Assembly: GCA_038326985.1 (NCBI GenBank)
Contig: JBBQKQ010000002.1
Coordinates: forward strand, 2,978 to 66,977
Direction of reading: 5' to 3'
Source: Minisyncoccia bacterium
GTDB lineage: Bacteria; Patescibacteriota; Minisyncoccia; Phycocordibacterales; UBA5272
DNA: 64,000 nt
Made by a program: the position numbers and the translations under genes. Under the pieces are notes generated by a model. The model saw only the letters and a list, made by a program, of their open reading frames with translations, was not told the origin of the DNA and did no database searches. Below, piece after piece: positions 4,327 through 59,099 of this stretch; within the stretch, counting starts at the first letter, position 1, and every line of letters starts with the position of its first letter.

Positions 4327-5019
4327 ATTTAGTTTTTTAGTTGAAGTTGCAATTTGAGCTTTGATTTCTTTAGGTAAAAGCTTGTCAATATCAACTTTTG
4401 TGGCAAGTCCAACGTGGACTTTTTTATCAATGACAATTGCTGGTAGCTGGTCAGGTTTTATTCCATAAATATTTCCGAAAGTTTTTATAATAGGTAAATC
4501 CAGGTTATAGTCTATAGAATAAACACGGAGTTTCTCATAGTCGTTACGTAAAGAAGTAAGTGCTTCCCCAGTCCCTACACATTTTGGACACACATCGGCA
4601 TTACCATAAAAGTAAATTATAAAGGTTGGTTTTTTACCGCAGTTTTCAGCTACTTTTTTTGAAAGTAGGTAGTCTTTTATTAAAAGTATGGTATATCTTT
4701 TTTTTGCGATCAATATTCTCTGATCCTCTTGGTTGGTGTTTTCTAAGATACTAAGTTTTTCTGCCAAGTCACCAATTTCTTTAGTAAGAGTAGTTTGGTT
4801 CTGAGTATCAAGATTATCACACGAAGCCTCCCTAACGATATCATTTTCAGTTTCAGATGCTAAGATTGATAGTGAGATATTATCCTCAACACTTTGAATA
4901 TTCTCTAATTTTTTTGAAGTTAAAAAGCTGGATGCTAAAAAACCTGTTATGAAGATCATTCCCGTAATAACAAGTGCAACTATATATCTTCGATAATTAA
5001 AATTAGTATTATTTGGCAT
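4297..5019 (-). CDS. Membrane-anchored thioredoxin-fold protein with a CPKC motif
   Basis: N-terminal TM helix, a coiled-coil-like middle, and a C-terminal region FYGNADVCPKCVG with a CxxC motif on a thioredoxin-like scaffold. Confidence 0.4.
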   Translation of the reverse strand: MPNNTNFNYRRYIVALVITGMIFITGFLASSFLTSKKLENIQSVEDNISLSILASETENDIVREASCDNLDTQNQTTLTKEIGDLAEKLSILENTNQEDQRILIAKKRYTILLIKDYLLSKKVAENCGKKPTFIIYFYGNADVCPKCVGTGEALTSLRNDYEKLRVYSIDYNLDLPIIKTFGNIYGIKPDQLPAIVIDKKVHVGLATKVDIDKLLPKEIKAQIATSTKKLNLDYFNFKSS

Positions 5020-5053
5020 ATTTGTATTTTTGTAATTATATCATAAAATTAAA

Positions 5054-5087
5054 GACCCCTCTTAACCTCCCCTTGGTAAGGGGAGGG
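5054..5087. repeat. Palindromic repeat family copy a, intergenic: GACCCCTCTTAACCTCCCCTTGGTAAGGGGAGGG
   Basis: Stem CCTCCCCTT / AAGGGGAGG with a 3 nt loop. It sits immediately 3' of the minus-strand GT2 gene stop and is near-identical to the copies at 19314 and 27347. Confidence 0.8.
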
Positions 5088-5094
5088 AAAATTC

Positions 5095-18658: not shown

Positions 18659-19192
18659 ATGAAACTTTTACTCAAAAAATTAACTTTTAAAAATTTTGCA
18701 GTTTCAATTTTAGTATTTCTAATATACTTCAAAATATTTTTTATTCTTACAAACTATCAACAATTTATAGAGCTCTATAAATATTCTAATTCTTTTTTAA
18801 ATTTCTTTTCAAACTCATTAAGTTATTTTTTTATCTTTTGGTCATCTCTAAATTTTTTAACATACACTTTTAGTATTATCTTTTTTGCTTTTGTATTTCT
18901 ATTTATTCTAACATTTACAATTGCAAAAGCGGGCATGAAAAATATATTTAAAAAAGTTCATAAATATAATATAGTTGGTAGTGTGCTTTCTTTTTTTGGT
19001 TTTGGTTGTGTTGCTTGTGGACAGACACTACTTTACCCCATACTTCTTTTCTTGTTTACCAATGTTTCCGGAGCACTTGTAGAGTATGTGGGTAATTTTG
19101 CAATGTTTTTAGGAATTATATTTTTGTATTTTGGAATAAAACAAAATCTTGAATTAATCAAAATCGAAGATAAAAAAATATGTATTATTTAA
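18659..19192 (+). CDS. Hypothetical polytopic membrane protein
   Basis: Multiple hydrophobic helices and a conserved-looking GFGCVACGQT segment. No assignable family. Confidence 0.35.
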   Translation: MKLLLKKLTFKNFAVSILVFLIYFKIFFILTNYQQFIELYKYSNSFLNFFSNSLSYFFIFWSSLNFLTYTFSIIFFAFVFLFILTFTIAKAGMKNIFKKVHKYNIVGSVLSFFGFGCVACGQTLLYPILLFLFTNVSGALVEYVGNFAMFLGIIFLYFGIKQNLELIKIEDKKICII

Positions 19193-19833
19193 ATAATCCA
19201 AAAAAATTAATTGCCTACAGTATTATTTTTATAATTGGATATTTTTTAGGAGACAAAACAATTCAAAACTTTTCTTTAGACAACTTAAAAATCACCCTTA
19301 GTCCCTCTAATCAGACCCCTTCTAGCCTCCCCTTGGATAAGGGGAGGGACCTCATTGCAACTAGTACAAAATATATTGTAAATTATGTTGTAGATGGTGA
19401 CACTATTCATGTAAAAAATGAAAATGGCGTTGAGACTAAAGTAAGACTTTTAGCAGTAAATACTCTTGAGCTTCATGCAACGAGCTCAAGAGAAAAATGC
19501 TTAGCAGAACAAGAAAAACAGTTCACTAAACAAAACCTTCTAGGAAAAGAGGTTGTTTTAACAGCTGATCCCACTCAACCAAAACTTGATAAATATGGTC
19601 GAAGTTTGTTTTATATTAGCCTCACCCCACCTCGAAACGATGGCAAGGGTACACTTGAAGCGAAGCAAGAGGGAGAAGAGCAAACCTTTAATGAATTATT
19701 GATGAAAACTGGAAATGCGAAAATTTATAAGTCTTCACCACCTGCACAAATGTATACAAAATATTTAGATTTACAAAATCAAGCAATTCAAAGTCGTGTT
19801 GGTATTTGGGACCCGACAAATTGCAAATTATAA
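19180..19833 (+). CDS. Thermonuclease (staphylococcal nuclease, SNase)-like secreted or membrane-anchored nuclease
   Basis: N-terminal TM helix and an SNase core: YVVDGDTIHV...KVRLLAVNTLE...DKYGRSL. Carries in-frame palindromic repeat copy b. Confidence 0.7.
   Translation: MYYLNNPKKLIAYSIIFIIGYFLGDKTIQNFSLDNLKITLSPSNQTPSSLPLDKGRDLIATSTKYIVNYVVDGDTIHVKNENGVETKVRLLAVNTLELHATSSREKCLAEQEKQFTKQNLLGKEVVLTADPTQPKLDKYGRSLFYISLTPPRNDGKGTLEAKQEGEEQTFNELLMKTGNAKIYKSSPPAQMYTKYLDLQNQAIQSRVGIWDPTNCKL
19314..19348 (+). repeat. Palindromic repeat family copy b, in-frame inside the SNase-like gene
   Basis: GACCCCTTCTAGCCTCCCCTTGGATAAGGGGAGGG, translated as TPSSLPLDKGRD. Confidence 0.8.
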
Positions 19834-27035: not shown

Positions 27036-27704
27036 GTGCTAAGTAAAGAAGCGCAGTTTCTAAAAAAGAAAGATAAAATATTGGGTAAAATAATTTTAGA
27101 GGATTTACCTGTGCTAAAAAGTAGGGGAAATGTCTACGAGTCGTTACTCTCATCAATTATTTCTCAACAAATTTCATTAGGAGCAGCAAGATCAATAAAA
27201 GAAAAATTCTTAAAATTATTCAATAAAAATACATTGAAATTTCCACGCATAAAAGAACTATTGGAAATAAGCGACGAAGATTTGAGAAGTGCCGGACTTT
27301 CGAAACCAAAAATAGGTTATATGAAAAATGTTGCAGAACATTATAAGACCCCACCTAGCCTCCCCTTGTTAAGGGGAGGAACAGTGCAATATGAAAATAT
27401 GAGTGATAGTGAAGTAATAGCAGATTTAGTAAAAATAAAGGGTGTGGGAGAGTGGACAGCTGAAATGATACTTATTTTTTCCCTACTTAAACCGGATGTG
27501 TATTCTTATAAAGATTTAGCATTAACAAATACTATAATCGAAACTTACAATATAAAAAAAGACAACTACACTCCAAAACAACTGAAAGAAGAAGTTTTAA
27601 AAATAACTGACAAATGGTCCCCGCACCGAAGCTTGGCTTCTAGATATTTATGGGAATATAGAGGTAAAAAGAAAATAAAATTAATAAATAAAAATCTCAC
27701 TTGA
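27036..27704 (+). CDS. HhH-GPD superfamily DNA glycosylase (AlkA / 3-methyladenine glycosylase II-like), GTG start
   Basis: HhH-GPD core VKIKGVGEWTAEMILIFSL...D. Contains in-frame palindromic repeat copy c just upstream of the HhH motif. Confidence 0.65.
   Translation: MLSKEAQFLKKKDKILGKIILEDLPVLKSRGNVYESLLSSIISQQISLGAARSIKEKFLKLFNKNTLKFPRIKELLEISDEDLRSAGLSKPKIGYMKNVAEHYKTPPSLPLLRGGTVQYENMSDSEVIADLVKIKGVGEWTAEMILIFSLLKPDVYSYKDLALTNTIIETYNIKKDNYTPKQLKEEVLKITDKWSPHRSLASRYLWEYRGKKKIKLINKNLT
27347..27380 (+). repeat. Palindromic repeat family copy c, in-frame inside the glycosylase gene
   Basis: GACCCCACCTAGCCTCCCCTTGTTAAGGGGAGGA, translated as TPPSLPLLRGGT. Confidence 0.8.
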
Positions 27705-30681: not shown

Positions 30682-31020
30682 TTGCTTCGTTTTTTGTTTG
30701 GGTGTAGAATTTTAGATGACCGACAAAACGGTCAGCGTTCAAAGGAAAAAAAAGATGGCAAAAAGCAAACGAGGAGCCGTAAAGGCATCCCGGAGGAGGA
30801 GGTGCCTTAGTGGTAATCCTGATTTGGTGGGGCAACATCACCAACTGCAAACAACCACGTTAGGTGGGGACTCGAGAGAGACTCCAAAAAGATATGACTA
30901 TGGGGGACGAACCTTTGTGTTTCCGGAAAGCACTTGGGAGTTGAATGATCTCAACTTCTAAGCTCAGTCTTCTTTGGGAAACGTTTGTGGGGCGCTGCAA
31001 AGCAGCGCCCCTTTTACTTT
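30682..31020 (+). other. Mini transcription unit 1: TTGCTT-N17-TAGAAT promoter, SD plus a 68 aa basic ORF (30755-30961), and a GC hairpin terminator (30988-31020). Possibly an sRNA.
   Basis: Promoter box TTTGGGTGTAGAAT shared with unit 2. AGGA Shine-Dalgarno 10 nt before the ATG. Terminator GGGGCGCTGCAAAGCAGCGCCCC + TTTTACTTTTT. About 45% GC in a ~30% GC genome. Confidence 0.35.
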
Positions 31021-31055: not shown

Positions 31056-31336
31056 TTGCTTTGTTTAAAGTTTGGGTGTAGAATTTAAAAGCTGTCAACC
31101 TGTAAAAGAAGGAAAAATCATGACTAAAAAGAAACCTTCAGGTGCACATGGCGCAAAAGGGGCAAAGCTTAGACGTGCAGAAAGATGGCTGCGTCAGAAC
31201 TTTGCGAAGTTCTTTTTCAGAACTCCGCGGATGACTCAAGAAACACCTTCGGTGATCTTGCATCAAGCGACAGGTTAATCCCGTAGAGCCAAAAAGAGGT
31301 AGGGGCGTCACAAATCGACGCCCCTTTTACTTTTTA
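31056..31336 (+). other. Mini transcription unit 2, paralogous to unit 1: TTGCTT-N17-TAGAAT promoter, SD plus a 52 aa basic ORF (31120-31278), and a GC hairpin terminator (31302-31336)
   Basis: Same promoter box AGTTTGGGTGTAGAAT and the same terminator tail GCCCCTTTTACTTTTTAA as unit 1. The ORF starts MTKKKPSGAHGAKGAKLRRAERW. Confidence 0.35.
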
Positions 31337-31361: not shown

Positions 31362-32684
31362 ATGATACTGAAAGATTTAGATAAATTTAAGCTTCCGGAC
31401 GAAAGTGGAGTTTATTTTTTTATGGGACCCCCCCTAACCCCCCCTTATACAGGGGGGGAAGAGAACATCCTTTACATTGGTAAAGCTACAAGTTTAAAAA
31501 GTAGAGTTAAAAGTTATTTTGATAATAATATTTTACATACCCGTGGTCTTCACATTGCAAACATGGTGAGCTTGGCCAAAAGTATTAAATTTGAAACTAC
31601 AAGAAGTGTTTTAGAAGCACTTCTGCTTGAGCAAGAGCTAATAAAAAAACATAAACCAAAATTCAACAGCGAAGCAAAAGATGATAAAAGTTTTTTTGTT
31701 TTGGTGATAACAAAAGAAGATTTTCCTAGAGTACTACTAGTAAGAAACAAAGATATAGACAAAGAAAATAACCTAGTTTTAAAAAGTAAATTACTTGGTA
31801 AGAAAGTAGAAAATAAAAAAGAAATTGTAAAAGTTGAAAAAACTTTCGGACCGTATTCAAGTGGGCAAAGTGCAAAAGATGCTTTAAAGCTTATTCGTAA
31901 AATTTTTCCATTTCGAGATAAATGTGATCTTTATGACAAGAAAAAATCTTGGCAAAAAAAAGCCTGTTTTTCATATTCTATAGGTCTGTGTCTAGGAACG
32001 TGTGCTGGAGTAATTTCTAAAACGAAATACCAAAACCATATTGAAAGACTAATAACTTTTTTAGAAGGGGATGGGGAAAAGGTGCGAAAAGATTTAGAAA
32101 AAGATATGCAAACTGCCAGTGACAAATTAGAATTTGAAGAAGCGCAAAGAATAAAAGAAATACTTTTTGCGCTCGAGCATATTCGAGATTCTCATCTTAT
32201 AAATCGTGATATAAAAGAAGAAAATAAAAGCACTCGTATAGAGGCTTTCGATATCGCACACATGTCTGGTCAAAACAGAGTCGGGGTAATGGTGGTTGTA
32301 CAAGGTGGAGTCCCTAATAAAAGCCAATACAAAAAGTTTAAAATCTCGAAAGATGAAAACGACGACTTAGAAGGATTAAAAGAGCTTTTTTTAAGAAGAA
32401 TAAAACACTTGGAATGGGGAATACCAGATGTAGTTATTGTTGACGGTGATGAAAGACATATAAATGTTGCAGAAAAAATTTTAATTGAAAACAACCTAGA
32501 TAAAACAGTAAAAGTTGTAGCAGTAACAAAAAACCGCCAACACAAAGCACAAAAAATAACAGGTGATAAAAAAATTGTGGAAGAGTTTCAAAGAGAAATA
32601 ACTTTAGCAAACAGCGAAGCCCATAGATTTGCAATAACTTATCATAAAAATTTACGCAAAAAAAGTTTTATACCTAAAAACTGA
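31362..32684 (+). CDS. uvrC: UvrC-like excinuclease, short 440 aa form: GIY-YIG, Cys-rich, UVR and RNase H-like start, but lacking the C-terminal Endo V-like and HhH2 domains
   Basis: GIY-YIG motifs GVYFFM...ILYIGKATSLKSRVKSYF. Cys cluster CDLYD..CFSYSIGLCLGTCAG. UVR motif EFEEAQRIKEILFALEHI. IEAFDIAHMSGQ motif. The ORF ends where the canonical C-terminal domains would follow. Carries in-frame repeat copy g inside the GIY-YIG motif. Confidence 0.6.
   Translation: MILKDLDKFKLPDESGVYFFMGPPLTPPYTGGEENILYIGKATSLKSRVKSYFDNNILHTRGLHIANMVSLAKSIKFETTRSVLEALLLEQELIKKHKPKFNSEAKDDKSFFVLVITKEDFPRVLLVRNKDIDKENNLVLKSKLLGKKVENKKEIVKVEKTFGPYSSGQSAKDALKLIRKIFPFRDKCDLYDKKKSWQKKACFSYSIGLCLGTCAGVISKTKYQNHIERLITFLEGDGEKVRKDLEKDMQTASDKLEFEEAQRIKEILFALEHIRDSHLINRDIKEENKSTRIEAFDIAHMSGQNRVGVMVVVQGGVPNKSQYKKFKISKDENDDLEGLKELFLRRIKHLEWGIPDVVIVDGDERHINVAEKILIENNLDKTVKVVAVTKNRQHKAQKITGDKKIVEEFQREITLANSEAHRFAITYHKNLRKKSFIPKN
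31426..31466 (+). repeat. Palindromic repeat subfamily-2 copy g, in-frame in the uvrC-like GIY-YIG motif
   Basis: GACCCCCCCCTAACCCCCCCTTATACAGGGGGGGAAGAGAAC, translated as GPPLTPPYTGGEEN, between GVYFFM and ILYIGKA. Confidence 0.8.
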
Positions 32685-41757: not shown

Positions 41758-44172
41758 ATGAAAATGCAAGATAAAATACCTTACGAACCAAAAGATATAG
41801 AAAAAAAATGGCAAGACGTTTGGGAAAAGAATAATTTATATAAAAGTGAAATAGATAAAACAAAAACAAAAATGCATGTTTTGGATATGTTTCCATATCC
41901 AAGTGGAGAAGGACTCCATGCAGGACATGCTAAAATTTTTGGAGCCTCAGACATTTATGCCCGAATGAAAAGAATGCAAGGTTTTAATGTTTTAAAAGTA
42001 CAGGGCTATGATGCTTTTGGACTTCCAGCAGAACAGTTTGCAATTAAAAATAAGGTCAACCCAAAAATTTCTACCAAAAAAAATACAGAAAACTTTGAAA
42101 GACAAATGCGACGCCTTGGACTTTCTTATGACTGGAGTAGAAGTGTAAACACAACTGACCCAAAATTTTACAAATGGACCCAATGGATATTTAAACAACT
42201 TTATAAAGATGGACTCTGTTTTGAAAGTCATGAGCCAATAAACTGGTGCCCAAGTTGTAAAACAGGTTTGGCAAATGAAGATTTGGAAGACGGAAAATGT
42301 GAGCGTTGCGGGAGTGTTGTAGAGAAAAAACCAATTCGTCAGTGGGTAATAAAAATAACAGACTACGCTGAAAAACTTTTAAGCGGAGTGGATAATTTAA
42401 ACTGGAAAGAAAGTATAAAAGAAATGCAGAGAAATTGGATTGGGAAAAGTGAAGGAGCGGAAATAGATTTTAGATTAAGTACTAGCCAAACTTTTACCGT
42501 TTTTACAACTCGTCCAGACACACTTTTTGGATGTACTTATTGTGTATTTGCGCCTGAAAATAAATTAGTAGAAGAATTGTTAAATAATAATTTAATTAAT
42601 AATGGGAACGAAGTTAAAAAATATATTTTAGAAGTAAAAGATAAATCTGAAATAGAAAGAACCTCTTCTGGTAAAGAAAAAACCGGTGTAAAACTTGAGG
42701 GTGTATTTGCAATAAACCCCGCAAACCAAAAAGAGGTGCCAGTCTACATTGCAGATTATGTATTAAACAATTATGGAACAGGAGCTATTATGGCGGTACC
42801 AGCACATGACGAGCGAGACTTTGAGTTTGCAAAAAAGTTTGATATAGAAATAATAGAATTAGAAAAGTTTGAAGATAAAAATGAAATAGTAAAAAAAGTT
42901 GGAGGGAAAATGGTTACAAAATATAAACTTCGTGACTGGGTATTTGCAAGACAGAGATATTGGGGTGAGCCTTTCCCAATTGTATTTGACGAAAACCACA
43001 ATCCATTTGTAGTTGCAGACTCTGAACTACCGGTAATACTTCCTGATGTAGAAAGTTATGAGCCAACTGGAGATGGAGAGAGTCCGTTAAAAAATATACA
43101 AGAGTGGGTAGAAGTAAATGGAAAAATAAATAGCGAGGGAGAATTTGAAAGTGATGAAAATGGAAAAATATTTTATAGAGAAACAAATACAATGCCCCAA
43201 TGGGCAGGAAGTAGTTGGTATTGGCTAAGATACATGGACCCTCATAATGATCAGGAAATGGTAAATAAAGAAATTGAAAAATATTGGGGGGATGTCGATA
43301 TCTATCTTGGGGGAATGGAACATGCAACTAGGCATTTAATATATGGTAGATTTTGGAACCAATTTTTATTTGATAAAAAAATAATCTCTACTCCAGAACC
43401 CTTTAAAAGACTTGAAGCTGTAGGGCTAGTGCTTGGAGAAGGTGGTATGAAAATGTCTAAAAGACTCGGAAACGTAATAAATCCAGATGACATTGCTGAT
43501 ATTTTTGGAGTGGATACACTCAGACTATATATTGCTTTTGCTGGGGACTATCATGATGACTATACTTGGGATACAAAAGCTATAGTTGGACCTAGAAGAT
43601 TCATTGAAAGAGTTTGGAATATGCAATACAAGATCCAGACCCCCCCTAGCCTCCCCTCAATTGAGGAGGGGAATAGTTCCCCAAATATCAAGCTAACAAC
43701 TTTACTACACCAAACAATAAAAAAAGTGAGTAATGACTACGAAAAACTACAGTTCAACACTGCTGTGGCTCAGATGATGACATTTATTAATGCGTATGAT
43801 AAAAATGAAAACATTGATTTAGAAAGTTATAAAACTTTACTAAAACTTCTAGCACCGATTTGTCCATTTGTGACAGAAGAAATATGGGAAAGCCTCACCC
43901 CGGCCCTCTCCATAGGAGAGGGAGCAATGCAATCTATTCACCAAGAAGAATGGCCAAAGTATGATGAGCTGCAAACTATAGACAAAGTTGTTAATATCGC
44001 CATACAAATCAACGGTAAATTGCGTGACACATTTTCTATAGCTACAGACAGCCCTGACGTGGAAGTTTTAGAAGTAGCAAAAAATAGAGAACAATATAAA
44101 AAATGGGTAGGTGAGGTAGAGCCAAAAAAAATAATTGTAATTAAAAATAAAATAGTAAATGTTGTACTTTAA
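41758..44172 (+). CDS. leuS: Leucine--tRNA ligase
   Basis: HIGH-type motif PYPSGEGLHAGHA, KMSKS-type GMKMSKRLGN, and CP1/editing and Zn-binding Cys regions. Carries two in-frame palindromic repeat copies. Confidence 0.9.
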   Translation: MKMQDKIPYEPKDIEKKWQDVWEKNNLYKSEIDKTKTKMHVLDMFPYPSGEGLHAGHAKIFGASDIYARMKRMQGFNVLKVQGYDAFGLPAEQFAIKNKVNPKISTKKNTENFERQMRRLGLSYDWSRSVNTTDPKFYKWTQWIFKQLYKDGLCFESHEPINWCPSCKTGLANEDLEDGKCERCGSVVEKKPIRQWVIKITDYAEKLLSGVDNLNWKESIKEMQRNWIGKSEGAEIDFRLSTSQTFTVFTTRPDTLFGCTYCVFAPENKLVEELLNNNLINNGNEVKKYILEVKDKSEIERTSSGKEKTGVKLEGVFAINPANQKEVPVYIADYVLNNYGTGAIMAVPAHDERDFEFAKKFDIEIIELEKFEDKNEIVKKVGGKMVTKYKLRDWVFARQRYWGEPFPIVFDENHNPFVVADSELPVILPDVESYEPTGDGESPLKNIQEWVEVNGKINSEGEFESDENGKIFYRETNTMPQWAGSSWYWLRYMDPHNDQEMVNKEIEKYWGDVDIYLGGMEHATRHLIYGRFWNQFLFDKKIISTPEPFKRLEAVGLVLGEGGMKMSKRLGNVINPDDIADIFGVDTLRLYIAFAGDYHDDYTWDTKAIVGPRRFIERVWNMQYKIQTPPSLPSIEEGNSSPNIKLTTLLHQTIKKVSNDYEKLQFNTAVAQMMTFINAYDKNENIDLESYKTLLKLLAPICPFVTEEIWESLTPALSIGEGAMQSIHQEEWPKYDELQTIDKVVNIAIQINGKLRDTFSIATDSPDVEVLEVAKNREQYKKWVGEVEPKKIIVIKNKIVNVVL
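43638..43671 (+). repeat. Palindromic repeat copy d, in-frame in leuS
   Basis: GACCCCCCCTAGCCTCCCCTCAATTGAGGAGGGG, translated as TPPSLPSIEEGN. Confidence 0.75.
43893..43928 (+). repeat. Palindromic repeat copy i (subfamily-2-like), in-frame in leuS
   Basis: CCTCACCCCGGCCCTCTCCATAGGAGAGGGAGCAATG with stem CCCTCTCC/GGAGAGGG, translated as LTPALSIGEGA. Confidence 0.6.
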
Positions 44173-49721: not shown

Positions 49722-50819
49722 ATGAAAAATAAAAAAGTATTTGTTGGACTAAGTGGAGGAGTAGACTCGAGTGTATCAGCATATTTATTAAAAAAATCTG
49801 GCTTTGATGTGACAGGAGTTTTTATAAAAGGTTGGCAACCAGATTGGATTCCTTGTACATGGATGTCAGATAGAATATCTGCAATGCGAACGGCTGCATA
49901 CTTGGATATTCCATTTATTACTCTTGATTTAGAAATGCAATACAAAAATAAAGTTGTGAGTTATTTACTTGAAGAATACGCAAAAGGGCACACTCCAAAT
50001 CCGGATATGCTTTGTAATAGAGAAATAAAATTTGGAAGTTTTTTAAATTGGAGTTTGAAAAATGGTGCCGACTATGTTGCCACTGGGCATTATGCACAAA
50101 ATTATAAAAATCAACTTTTAGAATCAATAGACAAAGAAAAAGATCAGAGTTATTTTTTATCACAGCTAACTCAAAAAGAGTTGCAACATATTTTATTTCC
50201 AGTAGGGCATTTGGTAAAAGCAGAAGTTCGAGGAATTGCAGCTCAAGCAAAATTGCCTGTTGCAACTAGAAAAGACTCTCAAGGAATATGCTTTGTAGGA
50301 GACTTATCAATGAAAGAATTCTTAAAACGAGAACTTAAGCCAGAAAAGGGAAATGTTGAGAACGTAGATGGGGAAATAATTGGTGAACACGATGGGGCTA
50401 TACTTTACACTATCGGCGAAAGACATGGGTTTACTATAATTAACAATACTGAAAATCAAAAACAATTTTATGTTGTCAAAAAAGATGTTGAGAAAAATGT
50501 GATTGTGGTTTCAGACTCACCCCTAACCCCTCTCCTTCAGAGAGGGGAAGAGAACAAAAAAGAAAAATTTATATATTTAAATGATTTTTCTTTTACACAA
50601 AATATTGATGAGGTGCAAAATAGCAAAAATTTATCTATAAGAATTCGCTATAGAGGTGCAAAAGTCGCAGTAAAATTTATTTCTTATAATGTATCTGAAA
50701 ATATAGTTGTGGTTGAGACTGAAGACAATTTAGTTTTTGATTTTGGACAATTTGGGGTTTTATATGACCGTGAAAGATGTCTGGGTGGTGGAGTAATTTC
50801 TACAAATGTGGTAGAATAA
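49722..50819 (+). CDS. mnmA: tRNA-specific 2-thiouridylase
   Basis: PP-loop VFVGLSGGVDSSVSAYLL, catalytic Cys region DMLCNREIKFG, and GHYAQ. Carries in-frame repeat copy h. Confidence 0.85.
   Translation: MKNKKVFVGLSGGVDSSVSAYLLKKSGFDVTGVFIKGWQPDWIPCTWMSDRISAMRTAAYLDIPFITLDLEMQYKNKVVSYLLEEYAKGHTPNPDMLCNREIKFGSFLNWSLKNGADYVATGHYAQNYKNQLLESIDKEKDQSYFLSQLTQKELQHILFPVGHLVKAEVRGIAAQAKLPVATRKDSQGICFVGDLSMKEFLKRELKPEKGNVENVDGEIIGEHDGAILYTIGERHGFTIINNTENQKQFYVVKKDVEKNVIVVSDSPLTPLLQRGEENKKEKFIYLNDFSFTQNIDEVQNSKNLSIRIRYRGAKVAVKFISYNVSENIVVVETEDNLVFDFGQFGVLYDRERCLGGGVISTNVVE
50525..50566 (+). repeat. Palindromic repeat subfamily-2 copy h, in-frame in mnmA
   Basis: GACTCACCCCTAACCCCTCTCCTTCAGAGAGGGGAAGAGAAC, translated as DSPLTPLLQRGEEN. 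It shares the CCCTAACCC head and GAAGAGAAC tail with copy g. Confidence 0.75.
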
Positions 50820-51550: not shown

Positions 51551-51593
51551 TACCTACTTGCAATTATTTTAAATAATGTTATTATTGTAATTG

Positions 51594-51720
51594 CTGGGTG
51601 GGGGTCCCCCCCGATGACCCACCTAGCGCATGCTGCTGCATCGCCCTACGCAGCAGCAGAGTGGTCCGAACTCCTGGAAGATTAGAGCTATTAAGCTCTC
51701 ATCCAGGGGTTCGGCCATTT
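51594..51720 (+). ncRNA. Candidate structured small RNA or complex terminator: ~125 nt, ~60% GC, three hairpins, ending in a terminator-like stem plus T-tract
   Basis: H1: GGTGGG...CCCACC around a C7 run. H2: TGCTGCTGC-atcgccctac-GCAGCAGCA (9 bp). H3: a 14 bp interrupted stem GGtCCGAACTCCTGG...CCAGGGGTTCGGCC enclosing AGAGCT-atta-AGCTCT, followed by ATTTCTCTTTGCATTTTT. It lies between the stop at 51550 and the rpoB promoter. Confidence 0.3.
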
Positions 51721-51724
51721 CTCT

Positions 51725-51752
51725 TTGCATTTTTAGAATTTTGTGTTATAAT
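51725..51752 (+). promoter_or_regulatory. rpoB promoter: TTGCAT, 16 nt spacer, TGtTATAAT
   Basis: TTGCAT 51725-30 and an extended -10 TGTTATAAT ending at 51752, with an ~85 nt leader to the rpoB ATG. Confidence 0.45.
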
Positions 51753-51837: not shown

Positions 51838-54800
51838 ATGACTACAAAAGTAATTCAAAAGTACTTTTCGAAATTCCGCGCTCCACTTGTTGAAGTTCCA
51901 AATCTAGTTGAAAACCAAATAAATTCTTATAACCTTTTTCTAAAAGAGGGTTTTGGAAATGTTTTGAGAGAGTTTACTCCTATTTCTGATTACTCAGGAA
52001 AAAAGTTTGATTTAGAAATTGTTAAATTTGAAATTGGAGATGCTAAGATGACTGAAATGGAGGCTAAAATGAAAAAGCAAACATTTGAAGCTCCAATACG
52101 TGCAACTTTTAAATTAAAAAACAAACTTCTTAATACCGAAAAAACTCAGGAGCTCTTTTTGGCTGACATGCCACTTATGACTGACCATGGTACTTTTATA
52201 ATTAATGGAATTGAGCGTGTAATTGTTTCTCAACTTATTAGATCATACGGAGTTTTCATATCAAGTGAAGAAGCTAAAGGGAAAGAATACTACGGTGCAA
52301 AAATTATTCCAGCTCGAGGAGTGTGGATAGAAATGCAAACTACTAACGACAATGAGATAGTAGTAAGAATTGACAAAAAAAGAAAATTTTCAATTATTAC
52401 ACTTTTACGAGCTTTTGGATATAAAACCGATGTTGAACTTTTGGGAGCATTTAAAGGTGATAAATCTCGCGCTTATATAAAAGCACTTTTAAAAACTGAC
52501 CCAATTAAAAACCAAGAAGATGCCTACGTAGAACTTTATAAAAAAGTTCGTGATGGAGATTTGGCTTCAGCTGATAATGCCAAAGAATATTTTGCATCTA
52601 TTTTTGATAAGGCAAGATATGACTTTTCACTTGTTGGAAGATTTAGATTTAATAAACGTTTTGGCCTTCCTTTAGAAGGAAAAGACCTTGATAGAAAAAC
52701 TTTTTCTAAAGAAGATTTGGCTATGGTTGTGGAGTCAATAATTAATTCTAATGAAAACATAGAAGCTATTCCAGATGATATTGACCACTTAGGATCTCGA
52801 AGAGTAAGATTTGTGGGTGAAATAATTGAAGGAAGAATTCGAACAGGAATGATCCAAGTAAAAAGAAATATCCAAGATCGTATGTCGGTAGTTGATGGAG
52901 ACACAACACTTCCAACAAATATTGTAAATCAGCGACCTTTACAAGCTCGTATCAAAGAGTTTTTTGCTACCAACCAACTTTCACAGTTCATGAACCAAGA
53001 TAATCTTCTTGGAGAAATTGAGCACTTAAGAACACTTTCTGCCATGGGACCTGGAGGTTTAAACTCTGAGCGTGCTTCATTTGAAGTTCGTGACGTGCAC
53101 ACCTCTCACTACGGTAGAGTATGTCCAGTGCACACTCCAGAAGGTCATACTATTGGGCTAATTTTGCGTATGTCTACTTATGCTAAAGTAAATAATTTTG
53201 GAATTCTTGAAACCCCATACGTTGTGGTGAAAGATGGTAAGATAACAGGTAAAATAGTTTATTTAAATGCTCTGGAAGAAGAAGCTTATGTTATTGCTCA
53301 CCAAGGTTTAAACTACAATGACAAAGGAGTTATTACTGATGATTTTGTGCAAGCAAGAGTTCGAACTATACCGGGAATTATTTCTGCGGACCAAGTCCAA
53401 CTTGTAGAAGTTTCTACATTCCAACAATTCTCAGTGGCAACTTCTCTTATTCCATTCCTAGAACATGACGATGCGACTCGTGCGTCTTACGGTGCAAACA
53501 TGCAGAAACAAGCAACTCCGGTTATTATTCCAGAGCTTCCAATTGTTGCCTCAGGACTAGAAAGTGAATATGCAAAATATACAGGAAGATTGGTTTATGC
53601 ACCGGCAAACGGAGAAATAGTTTTTGCAGATGCCAACAAAATAGAATTTATTGCTGATACTGATAAAGGAAACAATAAAAAGAAAATCACTTATCCTTTG
53701 CTTTCATTCCAAAGAACAAACCAATTTACAAATTTCCACCAAAGACCAGTCGTTAGAAATGGTGAAAAAGTAAAGAAGGGGCAAATTATGGTTGACGTTT
53801 CTACTTCAGATCGAGGGCAAATTGCTCTTGGACAAAATGTATTGGTAGCTTTCATGACTTGGAATGGAAATAACTTTGAAGATGCGATTATTCTTTCAGA
53901 AAGGTTAGTTAGAAATAAGAAGTTTACTAGTATTCATATTGAGGAGTTTGTATGTTTAGTTCGTGAGACAAAACTAGGACCAGAAAACACTACTTGCGAT
54001 ATTCCAAATGTTTCTGAAAACAGACTGAAGGATTTGGATGCCAATGGAATTATCCGAATGGGTGCAGAGGTTGAGCCGGGAGATATTTTAGTAGGAAAGA
54101 TTACTCCAAAAGGAGAAACTGATCTTACTCCAGAAGAAAGACTACTTAGAAGTATTTTCGGAGAAAAAAGTAGAGAAGTAAAAGATACTTCAATGCGTGT
54201 TGAAAATGGAAAACGTGGACGTGTTATTGGGGTAAAAATATTTGATAGAAGTAAAGGTGACACTCTTGAAACTGGAATCTTAAAAAGAATTCACGTAGAA
54301 GTTGCACAGCTTAGAAATATTTCTGTTGGAGATAAGCTTGCTGGTAGACACGGAAACAAAGGTGTAATTTCAGTAGTGCTACCCGAAGAAGAAATGCCAT
54401 TTATGGCCGACGGTACTCCTATTGATATTGTACTTACTCCACTCGGTGTGCCATCACGTATGAACCTAGGACAAATATTGGAAATTCACCTTGGGCTTGC
54501 AGCTGACAAGCTTGGCTACCAAGCTGTAGTTCCACCTTTTCAAGGTGCGACTGCTGATGAAATTTCCCAAGAGCTTGTAAAAGCTGGATATCAGTCCAAT
54601 GGTAAAATGCCACTTTTCGATGGACAAACAGGTGAGAAATTTGAACAAGACATTGCGGTGGGTATCATGTATATTTTGAAACTTCACCACATGGTTGAAG
54701 ATAAAATTCACATGCGCTCTACTGGTCCATACTCGCTTATTACTCAGCAACCTCTTGGTGGACGTGCACAAGGTGGAGGACAAAGACTTGGAGAAATGGA

Positions 54801-55143
54801 AGTGTGGGCCTTGGAAGGTTATGGTGCAGCTCATACTTTAAGAGAAATGTTAACGGTAAAATCTGATGATATTATTGGGCGTACTCGTGCTTTTGATGCC
54901 ATCATCAAAGATGAACCAATGCCAGAACCAGGAATTCCAGCATCATTTAACGTACTTAAAAATACTCTTCGTGGTCTTGCCCTTGACGTGCAAATAACTG
55001 GTGGAGACAAAGAAGGAACAGATGATTATGCAAAACAAGAATATCTTAAACACAGAGGTGTTAATATTGACGAACAACTTGGAATGGATGAGGAAGATAT
55101 GGCAGATTTACACGAAGTTGATGAAGATGCAGAATTAAAATAA
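51838..55143 (+). CDS. rpoB: DNA-directed RNA polymerase beta subunit
   Basis: 1101 aa. Conserved beta regions, e.g. GDKLAGRHGNKGV, PFMADGTP and NLGQILE. Confidence 0.95.
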   Translation: MTTKVIQKYFSKFRAPLVEVPNLVENQINSYNLFLKEGFGNVLREFTPISDYSGKKFDLEIVKFEIGDAKMTEMEAKMKKQTFEAPIRATFKLKNKLLNTEKTQELFLADMPLMTDHGTFIINGIERVIVSQLIRSYGVFISSEEAKGKEYYGAKIIPARGVWIEMQTTNDNEIVVRIDKKRKFSIITLLRAFGYKTDVELLGAFKGDKSRAYIKALLKTDPIKNQEDAYVELYKKVRDGDLASADNAKEYFASIFDKARYDFSLVGRFRFNKRFGLPLEGKDLDRKTFSKEDLAMVVESIINSNENIEAIPDDIDHLGSRRVRFVGEIIEGRIRTGMIQVKRNIQDRMSVVDGDTTLPTNIVNQRPLQARIKEFFATNQLSQFMNQDNLLGEIEHLRTLSAMGPGGLNSERASFEVRDVHTSHYGRVCPVHTPEGHTIGLILRMSTYAKVNNFGILETPYVVVKDGKITGKIVYLNALEEEAYVIAHQGLNYNDKGVITDDFVQARVRTIPGIISADQVQLVEVSTFQQFSVATSLIPFLEHDDATRASYGANMQKQATPVIIPELPIVASGLESEYAKYTGRLVYAPANGEIVFADANKIEFIADTDKGNNKKKITYPLLSFQRTNQFTNFHQRPVVRNGEKVKKGQIMVDVSTSDRGQIALGQNVLVAFMTWNGNNFEDAIILSERLVRNKKFTSIHIEEFVCLVRETKLGPENTTCDIPNVSENRLKDLDANGIIRMGAEVEPGDILVGKITPKGETDLTPEERLLRSIFGEKSREVKDTSMRVENGKRGRVIGVKIFDRSKGDTLETGILKRIHVEVAQLRNISVGDKLAGRHGNKGVISVVLPEEEMPFMADGTPIDIVLTPLGVPSRMNLGQILEIHLGLAADKLGYQAVVPPFQGATADEISQELVKAGYQSNGKMPLFDGQTGEKFEQDIAVGIMYILKLHHMVEDKIHMRSTGPYSLITQQPLGGRAQGGGQRLGEMEVWALEGYGAAHTLREMLTVKSDDIIGRTRAFDAIIKDEPMPEPGIPASFNVLKNTLRGLALDVQITGGDKEGTDDYAKQEYLKHRGVNIDEQLGMDEEDMADLHEVDEDAELK

Positions 55144-55235
55144 TAAATTTTTTCAAAACAAAACTCCTTAAACAAAAAAAATTTGTATCAGGCAAATTAA
55201 AATAAACTGGCTTCAGTGCACATTACAAGTTACAA

Positions 55236-55270
55236 AACCCCTCCTAACCTCCCCTTGATTAAGGTGAGGA
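55236..55270 (+). repeat. Palindromic repeat copy e in the rpoB-rpoC spacer, or in-frame at the extreme rpoC N-terminus if the 55216 start is used
   Basis: AACCCCTCCTAACCTCCCCTTGATTAAGGTGAGGA, translated in the 55216 frame as TPPNLPLIKVRN. Confidence 0.7.
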
Positions 55271-55284
55271 ACGGGCAAATAAAT

Positions 55285-58200
55285 ATGCAAACATTTAACA
55301 AAAAAATAATTAGAAATAATTTTAAAGAAATTGGACTACGAATAGCTTCACCTGCTCGTATTAAAGAATGGTCATATGGAGAAATCTTGAAACCAGAAAC
55401 TATTAACTACCGAACAGGAAAATCTGAACGAGGTGGACTTTTTGACGAGCGAGTTTTTGGACCAACAAAAAGTTTTGAATGTTATTGTGGAAAATATAAA
55501 CGAATTCGTTATAAAGACATTATTTGTGAAAAATGTGGAGTGCAAGTAACTGACTCCATAGTTCGTCGTGAAAGAATGGGGCATATTGAGCTTGCAACTC
55601 CTGTTTCTCATATTTGGTATTTGAAAGGGACTATTCCTGCCCCACTTCCATTATTTTTGGGTATTCAAGCTTCTCAACTTGAAAAAGTTATTTATTTTGC
55701 AGGTTACATTATCCAAAACGTAAATGAAGTTGAAAAAGCAAAACTTTTAAAAGATCTTGATGGAGAATTTAAAGATAAGCTAGGAAATGCAGCAGACGAA
55801 GCCACAAAAGAAAAACTGCGAGAGTTAATGATGACTGCCAAAGAAGAAATAAAGAACCTCTCCTCTTGGCAAGTTTTGGATGAAGTTACATATAATAAAT
55901 ATTCTGCCAGATATGGAAATGTTTTTGAAGCAGGGATTGGAGCTGAAGCAGTTTACAATATTTTAAAAAATTTAAACCTTCAAGAATTTATAAAAACTCT
56001 TGAAGTAGCGCTTTCAAATGCTGGAAGTGTTGAAAGAGAAAAACTTCAAAAAAGACTATCACTTGTAAGAGGAATGAACGAAGCCGATATCCGCCCAGAA
56101 TGGATGTTTATAAAAACTATGCCAGTTATACCTCCAGGGTTACGACCAATGGTTGCGCTTGAAGGTGGACGACACGCAACTTCAGATGTGAATGATCTTT
56201 ACCGAAGAGTTATAAACAGAAACAATCGTCTTAAAAAATTAATGGCAATAGGTGCTCCTGAAGTAATTTTGCGAAATGAAAAACGTATTTTACAAGAAGC
56301 TTGCGATTCACTTTTTGACAATACAGCACGAGGAAGTAAAGAAATGGCAATGAACGCGACACAACGCCGACAATTAAAATCTCTTGCGGACAACCTGCAA
56401 GGAAAACAAGGAATGCTTCGTCAAAACCTTCTTGGAAAGCGTGTAGACTATTCAGCGCGTTCAGTGATTGTTGTTGGTCCAAGACTAAATTTGAATCAAT
56501 GTGGTCTTCCAAAACATATGGCGCTTGAGCTGTTTAAACCATTCATTATCTCTAAACTTTTAGGAAGAGAATTGGCATTTAACATAAAATCTGCAAATAA
56601 ACTTATAGAAGAAGGAGACCCAGATGTTTGGTCAATATTGGAAGAGGTTATTGAAGGAAAATATGTATTGTTAAACCGTGCACCAACACTTCACCGTCTT
56701 GGTATGCAAGCCTTTATGGTTAAACTTGTAGAAGGAAACGCTATCCAACTCCACCCACTTGTTTGTCCCGCGTTTAACGCAGACTTCGACGGTGACCAAA
56801 TGGCTGTTCACTTACCTCTCGGTGAGGAGTCTCAAATGGAAGCCAGAGAAATCATGGCTGCACAAAAAAATATCTTAAAACCAGGAGATGGGGTACCTTC
56901 TTTCTTTGGAAAGCTTCTAGATCTAGTTTTGGGAGTGTTTTGGATGACAACTATTTTAGAAGAAGACAATAAAACTCCTCAATATTTTTCTTCACCAAAT
57001 GAGGCAATACTTGCTCATGAAAATGGGGTAGTGAGTTTCCGAAATAAAATAATTGTTCTCCCAACAGGATCTGTAAGATATACAAAGTTTGCAGGAAAAA
57101 CTTTCGAGACCACAGTTGGAAGACTTTTGTTTAACTCGGTACTTCCAAATGATTACGAATTCATCAACCAAACTTTAGAACAAAAAAGTTTGAAAAAACT
57201 TTTCGAGGATGTAATTGATAGATATGGAATTGAAAATTCTTGGGTTATTTTTGATCGTGTTAAAAACTTTGCATTCGAATATGCAACAAAATCTGGTGTG
57301 ACATTTGGTTTGTACGATGTAGAAACTCCAGTTGAAAAGGCGTCTCTTGTTGCGGAAGCTAATAAACTTGTAAAAGAAGTTGAAAATAACTTTAACGAAG
57401 GTTTCTTGTCAGATGAGGAAAGATATAAAAAAATTATTGAAATTTGGTCATCTACAAAAACTCGAATTGAAAAATCTTTGCGTGGTGCGTTTAAAGCTGG
57501 CAACCCAATTAAAGACATGGCAGAGTCTGGAGCTCGTGGAAACTATGGTCAGCTAAACCAAATGGCGGGTATGAAAGGTCTTATTCAAAACAACACTGGT
57601 CGTACACTTGATTTTCCGATTATTTCTTCATATAAAGAAGGACTATCACCGATTGAATATTTCGTAACTTCATATGGTGCACGTAAAGGTGGTTCAGATA
57701 CAGCACTTAAAACAGCTCAAGCAGGGTACTTTACTCGTAAACTTGTAGATGTTGCTCAAGATACAATTATCACTGAAGAAGATTGTGGGTCAGAGAATTT
57801 CAAAAATGTTTCAACACAAAACTTAGGAGGAATAGAAATTCCACTTTGGAAAACTATTTGGGGAAGAATATTAGCTGCCGATGTTGTACATGAAGGAAAA
57901 ACGCTTTACAAAAAAGGTGAAATGTTGAAACAATTTGAAGCAAAAGAAATTGATGCTGCGGGTGTTAAAACTGTTTCAATTAGAACCCCACTTACATGTA
58001 TTGCCGAGCGTGGACTATGTCAAAAATGTTATGGACTTGATATGGGTCGTGGAAATTTGGTGCGTCTAGGTGAAGCAGTAGGAATTGTGGCCGCTCAAGC
58101 GATTGGCGAGCCAGGAACACAGCTAACTATGCGTACTTTCCACTCAGGTGGAGTGGCAGGTGTCGATATTACTCAAGGTCTTCCTCGTGTAACAGAACTT

Positions 58201-58971
58201 TTCGAAAAAAGAATGCCCAAGACGCAAGTCGCTGCTACTCTTTCACCTTACGATGCTGAAGTTATGGAAATAACTACAAACGGAAATACAAAACTTATTA
58301 CTCTAATACTTGACGAAGGAGAATCTACTAAAAAATCTAAGGGTGTTAAAGAAGGACAAAAATCTGCACAATTTGAAATTTCTAACAAGCGTGTGGTTGT
58401 TGTGAAGGTTGGTGATCGTGTAAAACGTGGTGACATGTTGACTGATGGTTCAGCAGATATTGATGAACTATTCCACCATGCTGGAGCTGAAAAAGCGCAA
58501 GACTATATTGCAGAAGAAGTAACTAAAGTTTATGAGCTTCAAGGAGCAAGTATTTCACGAAAACACTTGGATATTATTATTAAACAAATGTTTTCTCGTA
58601 TGGAAGTTCTAGACGGCGGAGACTCAAAATATTCTCATGGTGATATTATTCCTGACTATACTTTCAAAAAAGAAAATAGAAAAGTTGAGTCCAAAGGTGG
58701 TCAAATTATGACTGCCGAGCCTATAATCCAAGGAATTACTCAAGCGTCTCTCTCTACAGAATCATGGTTGTCAGCTGCATCATTCCAAAATACTACAAAA
58801 ATTCTTATTAAAGCTGCAACTCGTGGACAACGTGATGAGCTTGTAGGTTTGAAGGAAAATGTTATTGCGGGACGTCTTGTTCCAGTAGGAACAGGTTACC
58901 GAACAAAAGCTGAAAAAGAAGTTGAAGAAATGGAAAAAGAAGCCCAGTTTAATGAGGGATCAGATGAATAA
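55285..58971 (+). CDS. rpoC: DNA-directed RNA polymerase beta' subunit. Start set at ATG 55285. An in-frame upstream ATG at 55216 would add 23 aa including the repeat.
   Basis: Canonical beta' N-terminus begins near ...IASPARIKEWSYGE. Zn-finger CYCGKYKR..C.KCGV and NADFDGD catalytic motif. 1228 aa from 55285. Confidence 0.9.
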   Translation: MQTFNKKIIRNNFKEIGLRIASPARIKEWSYGEILKPETINYRTGKSERGGLFDERVFGPTKSFECYCGKYKRIRYKDIICEKCGVQVTDSIVRRERMGHIELATPVSHIWYLKGTIPAPLPLFLGIQASQLEKVIYFAGYIIQNVNEVEKAKLLKDLDGEFKDKLGNAADEATKEKLRELMMTAKEEIKNLSSWQVLDEVTYNKYSARYGNVFEAGIGAEAVYNILKNLNLQEFIKTLEVALSNAGSVEREKLQKRLSLVRGMNEADIRPEWMFIKTMPVIPPGLRPMVALEGGRHATSDVNDLYRRVINRNNRLKKLMAIGAPEVILRNEKRILQEACDSLFDNTARGSKEMAMNATQRRQLKSLADNLQGKQGMLRQNLLGKRVDYSARSVIVVGPRLNLNQCGLPKHMALELFKPFIISKLLGRELAFNIKSANKLIEEGDPDVWSILEEVIEGKYVLLNRAPTLHRLGMQAFMVKLVEGNAIQLHPLVCPAFNADFDGDQMAVHLPLGEESQMEAREIMAAQKNILKPGDGVPSFFGKLLDLVLGVFWMTTILEEDNKTPQYFSSPNEAILAHENGVVSFRNKIIVLPTGSVRYTKFAGKTFETTVGRLLFNSVLPNDYEFINQTLEQKSLKKLFEDVIDRYGIENSWVIFDRVKNFAFEYATKSGVTFGLYDVETPVEKASLVAEANKLVKEVENNFNEGFLSDEERYKKIIEIWSSTKTRIEKSLRGAFKAGNPIKDMAESGARGNYGQLNQMAGMKGLIQNNTGRTLDFPIISSYKEGLSPIEYFVTSYGARKGGSDTALKTAQAGYFTRKLVDVAQDTIITEEDCGSENFKNVSTQNLGGIEIPLWKTIWGRILAADVVHEGKTLYKKGEMLKQFEAKEIDAAGVKTVSIRTPLTCIAERGLCQKCYGLDMGRGNLVRLGEAVGIVAAQAIGEPGTQLTMRTFHSGGVAGVDITQGLPRVTELFEKRMPKTQVAATLSPYDAEVMEITTNGNTKLITLILDEGESTKKSKGVKEGQKSAQFEISNKRVVVVKVGDRVKRGDMLTDGSADIDELFHHAGAEKAQDYIAEEVTKVYELQGASISRKHLDIIIKQMFSRMEVLDGGDSKYSHGDIIPDYTFKKENRKVESKGGQIMTAEPIIQGITQASLSTESWLSAASFQNTTKILIKAATRGQRDELVGLKENVIAGRLVPVGTGYRTKAEKEVEEMEKEAQFNEGSDE

Positions 58972-59035: not shown

Positions 59036-59054
59036 TGGTAATATTAGAAATATA

Positions 59055-59099
59055 AATCCTCCCTAGCCCTCCTTGAGAAAGGAGGGCTAGGGAGGATTT
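59055..59099. repeat. Palindromic repeat family copy f: the longest and perfect copy, a 19 bp stem, intergenic between rpoC and dnaG
   Basis: AAATCCTCCCTAGCCCTCCTT-gagaa-AGGAGGGCTAGGGAGGATTT, a perfect inverted repeat. Confidence 0.8.

Follow-up and report, generated by a model that had tools for sequence, protein, structure and literature searches.

A likely triplex-motif repeat lies in frame in the GIY-YIG turn of UvrC in a Minisyncoccia bacterium

What is the short G/C-rich stretch that separates the two tyrosine-bearing strands of the nuclease domain of UvrC in a Minisyncoccia bacterium, and how does the gene live with it? The uvrC gene in question lies in a 64,000-nucleotide stretch of DNA (contig JBBQKQ010000002.1 of GenBank assembly GCA_038326985.1, positions 2,978 to 66,977), called the window here. 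The window is AT-rich (about 33% G+C), and the stretch within uvrC, copy e4 below, consists of 42 nt, GGACCCCCCCTAACCCCCCCTTATACAGGGGGGGAAGAGAAC, that are G/C-rich, in frame and free of stop codons over all 14 codons. We consider it likely that e4 is one copy of an interspersed repeat, short and G/C-rich, which is laid out for an intrastrand triple helix and is tolerated in the turn between strands beta1 and beta2 of UvrC. The gene, the copy and its blocks are as follows.

31362 to 32684, plus strand: the uvrC open reading frame (ORF), 440 aa, with GIY-YIG, UVR and RNase H-like endonuclease domains and without HhH2.
31425 to 31466, plus strand: the in-frame repeat copy e4, codons 22-35 (GPPLTPPYTGGEEN); position 31427 in the three-block scan.
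31428 to 31434, plus strand: block X (CCCCCCC), the mirror image of block Y; its minus strand is the third (reverse-Hoogsteen) strand, GGGGGGG(T).
31438 to 31445, plus strand: block Y (CCCCCCCT), the 5' hairpin arm.
31451 to 31458, plus strand: block R (AGGGGGGG), the 3' purine hairpin arm, followed by the tail AAGAGAAC, which is common to copy e7.

Near its N-terminus the protein encoded by this ORF reads GVYFFM-GPPLTPPYTGGEEN-ILYIGKA. In empty orthologs the turn is made by four codons, or 12 nt (for example, TTGGGTGAGGAA), and the net gain in uvrC is 10 residues (+30 nt). Alignment with the N-terminal structure of Thermotoga maritima UvrC (1YCZ) leaves a 10-residue gap precisely at the insert. 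The tyrosine-to-tyrosine spacing is 19 residues with the insert and 9 without it, which is roughly a doubling. An earlier note on this DNA, made from the sequence alone, had proposed that a repeat of about 10 residues was inserted between GVYFFM and ILYIGKA. The gap against 1YCZ, the 12-nt empty turns and the eight loci of the repeat in the window bear this out. The coordinates then given, 31426-31466, do cover the segment; the start is placed here at 31425, and they were off by one base at most. Read on the minus strand, e4 is CCCCCCCT-GTATA-AGGGGGGG-TTA-GGGGGGGT, that is, a pyrimidine arm, a loop, a purine arm, a 3-nt loop and a mirror purine arm; the minus-strand 35-mer of the uvrC element is CCCCCCCTGTATAAGGGGGGGTTAGGGGGGGT. 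The hairpin of e4 has a nearest-neighbour energy of -11.6 to -13.1 kcal/mol. Codons 23-33 contain the runs C7, C7 and G7, and three 7-nt homopolymer runs at such a place are slippage-prone. The minus strand of 31428-31458, AGGGGGGG-TTA-GGGGGGGT, also matches the quadruplex pattern G3N1G3N3G3N1G3.

That e4 belongs to a repeat is indicated by its relatives in the window. A strict scan for the full three-block motif found eight loci, as against none in 100 dinucleotide-preserving shuffles of the window. Six of the eight are in frame within genes which, as named by Pfam, encode UvrC, LeuS (two copies), MnmA, an HhH-GPD glycosylase and an SNase-like protein. No second near-identical copy of e4 is present within the window; the related elements were reached via C/G runs and G/C-rich hairpins. 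The other seven copies are listed below.

5053 to 5090, plus strand: copy e1, intergenic, between two minus-strand genes; scan position 5055.
19313 to 19351, plus strand: copy e2, in frame in the SNase-like ORF 19180..19833 (QTPSSLPLDKGRD); scan position 19315.
27346 to 27391, plus strand: copy e3, with the tail AACAGTGCAAT, in frame in the HhH-GPD glycosylase ORF 27036..27704 (KTPPSLPLLRGGTVQ); scan position 27348.
43637 to 43677, plus strand: copy e5, degenerate, in frame in leuS, 41758..44172 (QTPPSLPSIEEGN); scan position 43641.
43891 to 43925, plus strand: copy e6, in frame in leuS (LTPALSIGEGA); scan position 43893.
50512 to 50555, plus strand: copy e7, in frame in mnmA, 49722..50819 (DSPLTPLLQRGEEN); scan position 50516.
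59054 to 59099, unstranded: copy e8, a palindromic double copy, intergenic, just after ORF 55216..58971; scan position 59056.

Like the insert in UvrC, two of the other genic copies stand as gaps against solved structures: e6 as a 9-residue gap against LeuS of T. thermophilus, and e7, whose tail is identical to that of the UvrC copy, as a 7-residue gap against 9HLV. Read on the plus strand, the layout is 5'-X-TAR-Y-loop-R: Y pairs with R in the hairpin, and X mirrors Y. The conserved TAR between the first two blocks gives a stop codon in one sense frame out of three; no copy uses this frame, and both of the others occur. All seven one-sided copies in the window have their C-rich blocks on the plus strand. 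Since this strand also carries nearly all the genes and has a mostly positive GC skew, the effects of replication and transcription on orientation are inseparable here. Copy e8 folds into a perfect hairpin of 21 bp (-26 kcal/mol, z = -8.9) with TTTTT after it, and plausibly resembles an intrinsic terminator made from the repeat. For the genic copies a role as intrinsic terminator was ruled out, because no T-run follows them.

The kind of repeat is suggested by the relation between its blocks. In all DNA fetched, each hairpin with an all-pyrimidine 5' arm (Y) was compared with the block directly upstream. The upstream block is the mirror image of Y rather than a direct copy of it: CTCCCCC is found 41 times as mirror versus once as direct copy, CCCCTCC 37 versus 6 times, CCCCTCT 5 versus 0 and TCTCCCC 4 versus 0. 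The same rule applies to CCTCCCC, CCCTCTC and CCCTCCT, giving at least seven stem variants in total, over some 130 metagenome copies. The search pattern left one position free, that facing the A of the purine arm; there the third strand has T in 86 cases, A in 20, C in one and G in none. The purine motif permits both A.AT and T.AT triads (PMC4666352). An intrastrand triple helix needs just such mirror symmetry in a homopurine/homopyrimidine tract beside a hairpin. As comparative evidence, mirror covariation over so many stem variants speaks for conservation of the three-strand pairing itself.

The ITxF class II purine-motif definition (Holder et al., 2015; PMC4666352) asks for stems of 6-15 nt with at most one mismatch and for loops of 1-6 nt. 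Copy e4 has eight triads with no mismatch and loops of 5 nt (GTATA) and 3 nt (TTA), and the triad rules of that definition (G opposite G-C; A or T opposite A-T) are obeyed. The strict TMECO/BoxC consensus, CCCTCNCCC N3-6 GGGNGAGGG N3 GGGNGAGGG, is not matched: only the layout and the TTA loop agree, the blocks being C7/G7 in e4 and CCTCCCC/GGGGAGG in sister copies. The repeat also departs from the intergenic location of TMECO/BoxC, in that long ORFs contain 6 of the 8 window copies and 18 of the 21 from related loci. Because the structural definition fits and the TMECO consensus does not, the repeat is the same kind of element and not, in the strict sense, of the same family. The G-rich strand may form a transient triplex when it is single-stranded. 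A pyrimidine-motif (C+.GC) triplex on the plus strand or the mRNA was demoted as a candidate, as the third strand varies between T and A opposite A-T. Purine-motif triplexes are not known to depend on pH, and this was also counted in that demotion. Rfam had no family at its gathering threshold over the window, nor any at E <= 1 on seven repeat-bearing loci; the element is thus not a curated RNA family.

UvrC accommodates the copy with its domains in place. Pfam finds the GIY-YIG domain (PF01541) at residues 33-102, the UVR (UvrB-binding) motif (PF02151) at residues 239-268 (25 bits against a cut-off of 21.5), and UvrC_RNaseH_dom (PF08459), the C-terminal 5'-incision nuclease, at residues 287-422 (E = 4.6e-30). 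For the C-terminal region, alignment to two solved 5'-incision domains, 2NRT and 3C65, takes in FDIAH, VDGD and EAHRF (the D/D/H motifs), and the AlphaFold model described below matches 2NRT with a Foldseek probability of 1.0. No HhH family was detected in UvrC by Pfam at E <= 0.01, and the protein ends 18 residues past the nuclease domain. Its TIGR00194 score, 263.8, is under the cut-off of 285.45. The earlier note had described a short UvrC lacking both the C-terminal nuclease and the HhH domain. It was right about (HhH)2; the nuclease is present. Homologs of about 405-450 aa with the same domains and without HhH2 are typical among the Patescibacteria/Paceibacterota proteins found.

The residues Y18, Y38, R48, E90 and N102, which we take to be the counterparts of the catalytic Y19, Y29, R39, E76 and N88 of T. 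maritima UvrC, are unchanged throughout an alignment of 64 UvrC homologs. The N-terminal domain aligns to the structures 1YCZ and 1YD6. Against the closest ortholog, dN is 0.14 and dS about 1.9, a saturated value, so the dN/dS ratio is only a bound. The AlphaFold model of UvrC, built with the 64-sequence alignment, has a mean pLDDT of 84.6, with beta1 at residues 16-22, beta2 at 35-42 and the insert (residues 23-34) as coil of lower confidence. In the model of the insert-less ortholog P0009, beta1 at 16-22 is followed by a two-residue turn and beta2 at 25-32, and the later elements come in the same order. Foldseek places the UvrC model on 1YCZ with a target-normalised TM-score of 0.82 and an rmsd of 2.4 Å. 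Given the invariant catalytic residues, the low dN relative to dS and the fold kept in the AlphaFold model, uvrC is under purifying selection and shows no sign of decay. Of the two alternatives put forward in the earlier note, a loop that tolerates the insert and a gene that is decaying, the first is favoured by the full-length ORF, the invariant residues, the dN and dS values and the preserved fold, and the second is contradicted by the same full-length ORF and invariant residues and by the TM-score to 1YCZ. The downstream frame, where an overlooked disruption had been feared, is intact, with no stop in the insert. The note had also suggested comparing structures with and without the insert, and the models of UvrC and P0009 have the same fold. 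The insert is presumably translated into an extension of the loop.

UvrC has about three permissive sites that have been struck repeatedly and independently, and the beta1-beta2 turn is among them. Among 113 homologs the turn has basal length in 83 and is longer in 30 (27%), with 12 residues or more in 17 of the latter. DNA of orthologs was taken from the contigs that encode UvrC homologs, orthology being backed by ClpB-UvrC-RNR synteny. The comparison of uvrC alleles across related loci, which had been proposed earlier, is informative: the turn is empty (12 nt) in L139 and L002, and other loci have different inserts. Three different triplex motifs occupy it in L132, L134 and L135 in the sense orientation, and triplex motifs occupy it in L133 and L136 in the opposite orientation. 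The allele of L133, CCCTCCCC TGAA GGGGGAGGG CCG GGGAGGGGG, is near the TMECO consensus and has a CCG loop. In L001, whose UvrC is 80% identical, and in L138, the turn holds plain G/C hairpins without a third block. The nearest relatives of the insert-bearing alleles, at 88-93% identity, show short or empty turns. The orthologs thus hold at least five separate triplex-motif insertions at the turn, in both orientations; with the window copy counted, and L133 and L136 taken as one each, the alleles point to at least six, plus two hairpin insertions.

That many UvrC orthologs might have loops of similar length by nature had been named as an objection to an insertion. Longer loops do exist, as the 30 of 113 homologs testify, but they do not appear native to UvrC, since their sequences are unrelated, the alleles sequenced carry separate G/C-rich insertions, and the turns of the nearest relatives are empty. 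In the 64-sequence alignment, inserts of at least 7 residues cluster at three places in UvrC: the turn, residues ~146-153, which overlap a stretch of the AlphaFold model with pLDDT < 50, and residue ~376, which adjoins a region of reduced confidence. Several of these clustered inserts have a Pro/Ser and then Gly/Glu composition. The clustering fits selection that narrows insertions to permissive loops.

Two further observations concern uvrC orthologs. In L001, the closest ortholog, positions 4815-4865 make an in-frame 14-codon insert of the same length at the same turn, with the 10-bp hairpin GGGCGGCGGC-GAA-GCCGCCGCCC. Additional in-frame triplex motifs occur at about residues 150-180, in L133 (8341-8371 and 8722-8752, both in the opposite orientation) and in L002 (7231-7261).

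Beyond the window the repeat is found both in the clade and outside it. Eleven clade loci contain 21 triplex motifs. Long ORFs hold 18 of them, among which are motifs in UvrA, in ribonucleotide reductase and at additional sites of UvrC. For 15 of these 18 genic motifs the sense strand is the C-rich one; speculatively, this bias could avoid a G-rich non-template strand. A metagenome scan with GACCCCNNYTARCCTCCCCT gave at least 120 contigs with a G+C content of 30-70%. Among the matches listed, which the search pattern itself selected, the GGGGAGG arm follows a variable loop in 107 of 133 distinct copies, and of the 81 copies of the CCTCCCC subfamily that have sufficient context, 15 fall within open frames of at least 150 aa. 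In-frame copies were seen in DnaG primase, where the DNAG_N match is split, in SufD and in Dus (L078, L094/L114 and L073; contigs of 42-56% G+C). In-frame genic copies are therefore not limited to Patescibacteria; outside the clade most copies are intergenic. Copies of different genomes have 3' tails in common, GGGGAAyAGTGCAAT in one group and GGGGAAGAGAAC in another, the latter including the UvrC and MnmA copies of the window. The common tails indicate at least two subfamilies, and the copies look copied and not arisen anew at each site. Neither this analysis nor the literature links a transposase to the repeat.

In other organisms the repeat also forms arrays. L052 (786-950) and L058 (1120-1520) show tandem copies with a 64-bp period, and composite units of 130 bp whose copies, swapped in block order, point towards one another. 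A CRISPR-like array was dismissed for these tandem copies, as the would-be spacers are identical or part of a larger composite repeat. In L002 (1905-2005), a run of N lies between two identical repeat copies with identical flanks, from either an assembly gap or a local duplication.

Other explanations of the insert can be weighed against these data. Were the insert to break the GIY-YIG active site, uvrC would be on its way to becoming a pseudogene. The doubled spacing of the tyrosines, a Pfam GIY-YIG match that begins only at residue 33 and is barely above the cut-off, and the reduced genomes of Patescibacteria are in keeping with this. However, the 440-aa ORF is intact with all three domains, the catalytic residues are invariant, dN is far under dS, the predicted fold is kept, and many intact orthologs have inserts at the same turn; inactivation is therefore very improbable. 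It is distinctly unlikely, although somewhat less so, that UvrC of this clade has the longer loop natively or as an adaptation, selected for example as a new contact surface. To its credit are the 27% of homologs that are longer here and the likeness of their loops, P/S/T-rich and then G/E-rich. The likeness, though, follows directly from translating a C-rich arm ahead of a G-rich one; the loops resemble one another in neither sequence nor length and are mixed with empty turns among close relatives, their DNA consists of copies of a genome-wide repeat in both orientations, and the same repeat occurs in unrelated proteins.

A local function of the DNA or RNA is also unlikely. A structure early in uvrC might slow ribosomes or polymerases, or the three 7-nt runs might act as a slippage switch of excision repair. 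The motif of e4 is perfect and undecayed, its hairpin is stable, the C7/C7/G7 runs are there, genic copies favour the C-rich strand as sense by 15 to 3, and PIT elements block DNA polymerase in vitro (PMC4666352). On the other hand, the copies share no context, being spread over intergenic DNA and numerous genes that are unrelated, and PIT elements showed neither promoter or terminator activity nor an effect in vivo (PMC4666352). No length variants of the runs were seen, a single sequence being at hand. Homopolymers and strong structures are error-prone, and one related contig has an N-gap between two identical repeat copies, which would suit an assembly or sequencing artefact at the runs. But the frame is preserved, the identical protein is recorded from two sources (NCBI and Logan), and seven other copies in the window as well as copies in independent assemblies obey the same rules, making an artefact extremely improbable.

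Several points tell against a triplex-motif repeat tolerated in the turn. The case for triplex formation comes from covariation in sequence, and e4 is all G/C, so that a G-quadruplex or a plain hairpin could compete with the triplex structure. The TMECO triplex is stable in vitro, yet its footprint was not found in vivo (Holder et al., 2015; PMC4666352). The ends of the element are approximate, and the GEEN codons (GAAGAGAAC) may come either from the element tail or from the ancestral loop. Recurrence at the turn could reflect target preference for purine-rich GGN-GAR-GAR codons, instead of or beside tolerance. The copies compared share ancestry, and those from the metagenomes were selected by the search pattern among the matches listed; in neither case are the counts independent events. 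The saturation of dS mentioned above belongs here as well, and the translation of the insert and the activity of UvrC are things that we infer.

Among known systems, the closest to this repeat are BoxC, PIT and TMECO, the intrastrand triplex motifs (Hoyne and Maher, 2000; Holder et al., 2015; PMC4666352). TMECO acts neither as a promoter nor as a terminator, is not linked to transposons, and is tied to local sequence instability; the 23 copies in Escherichia coli MG1655 are "always located intergenically" (PMC4666352). Like them, the repeat is multi-copy and G/C-rich, has the block order pyrimidine arm, loop, purine arm, 3-nt loop (TTA or CCG) and mirror purine arm, with stems of 7-9 nt and A or T in the third strand opposite A-T, forms palindromic double copies, and lacks a transposase. 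Unlike them, it has blocks of CCTCCCC or C7 (as compared with CCCTCNCCC in TMECO), resides in an AT-rich Patescibacterium with most copies in frame in housekeeping genes, and shows a strand bias, which is not seen in E. coli.

The in-frame habit recalls instead the Rickettsia palindromic elements (RPEs; Ogata et al., 2000; reviewed in PMC10969869). Both are palindromic repeats found in frame in unrelated housekeeping genes, at fold-compatible sites, in a small AT-rich genome. However, RPEs, which are restricted to Rickettsia, are ~100-150 bp long, encode 30-50 residues with a conserved peptide and show no triplex layout (PMC10969869), whereas the element here spans 30-46 bp and 7-15 residues, its peptides vary with frame and subfamily, and related copies occur in contigs of 30-70% G+C; in size and peptide it is no RPE. 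REP/BIME sequences, which RAYT transposases mobilise (PMC3733652), are likewise short (20-40 bp) G/C-rich hairpin repeats of high copy number. REPs are extragenic and have a GTAG or CGTC tag, in contrast to the repeat here, which has a GAC-led mirror block and lies in genes; no GTAG or CGTC tag was seen beside the palindrome in the copies examined. In AT-rich organelle genomes, such as yeast mitochondria and, as RHE, sponge mitochondria, GC clusters are G/C-rich hairpins that spread, at times into coding sequence. They differ from the repeat here in having no mirror third block and an unrelated sequence.

Two other regions of the window can be recorded in passing. In the ClpB-UvrC spacer, 30989-31011 and 31301-31325 are ordinary G/C hairpins with T-runs, after the small ORFs 30716..30961 and 31072..31278; Rfam gave no credible match to them at E <= 1. 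Upstream of the rpoB-like ORF 51838..55143, a G/C-rich self-complementary intergenic stretch at 51590-51730 (GGGTGGGGGTCCCCCCCGATGACCCACC..., GCTGCTGC...GCAGCAGC) is without an Rfam match and could be an undescribed RNA.

A copy of the triplex-motif repeat has landed in the turn between the GIY and YIG tyrosine strands of UvrC and left the frame open, and the extra residues are predicted to form a disordered extension at the tip of the beta-hairpin. The repeat itself would be selfish or neutral DNA, with selection leaving only those sites and frames that proteins can stand, and removing copies in the stop-containing frame and in structured regions. The repeats of this lineage are in fact mostly within genes, in frame, at poorly ordered loops or linkers. 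A wider reading, which we regard as possible but rather doubtful, is that triplex repeats are very widespread, transposase-independent self-copying DNA that routinely colonises ORFs in frame and is a general, so far unrecognised source of protein indels, the C7/G7 runs of uvrC serving as a slippage switch. If so, each insertion would add a Pro/Ser-rich and then Gly/Glu-rich stretch to a surface loop, and microhomology to purine-rich Gly-Glu codons may aid landing.

The element is thus of a known kind, the intrastrand triplex repeat, in a setting not reported before: in frame in housekeeping genes and recurrent at the GIY-YIG hairpin. A literature search, which was not exhaustive, found no report of in-frame repeats in Patescibacteria or of genic triplex repeats, and the sequence strings gave nothing relevant. 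BoxC/PIT/TM were earlier described as intergenic curiosities; here they are met in frame in essential genes. Filled and empty sites make a natural series for tracing the ends of the element and the mechanism of its insertion. After the Rickettsia palindromic elements, this would be a second system in which selfish repeats reshape protein loops, and the beta1-beta2 turn of GIY-YIG, usually quoted as a fixed spacer of 10-11 residues, is a permissive site.

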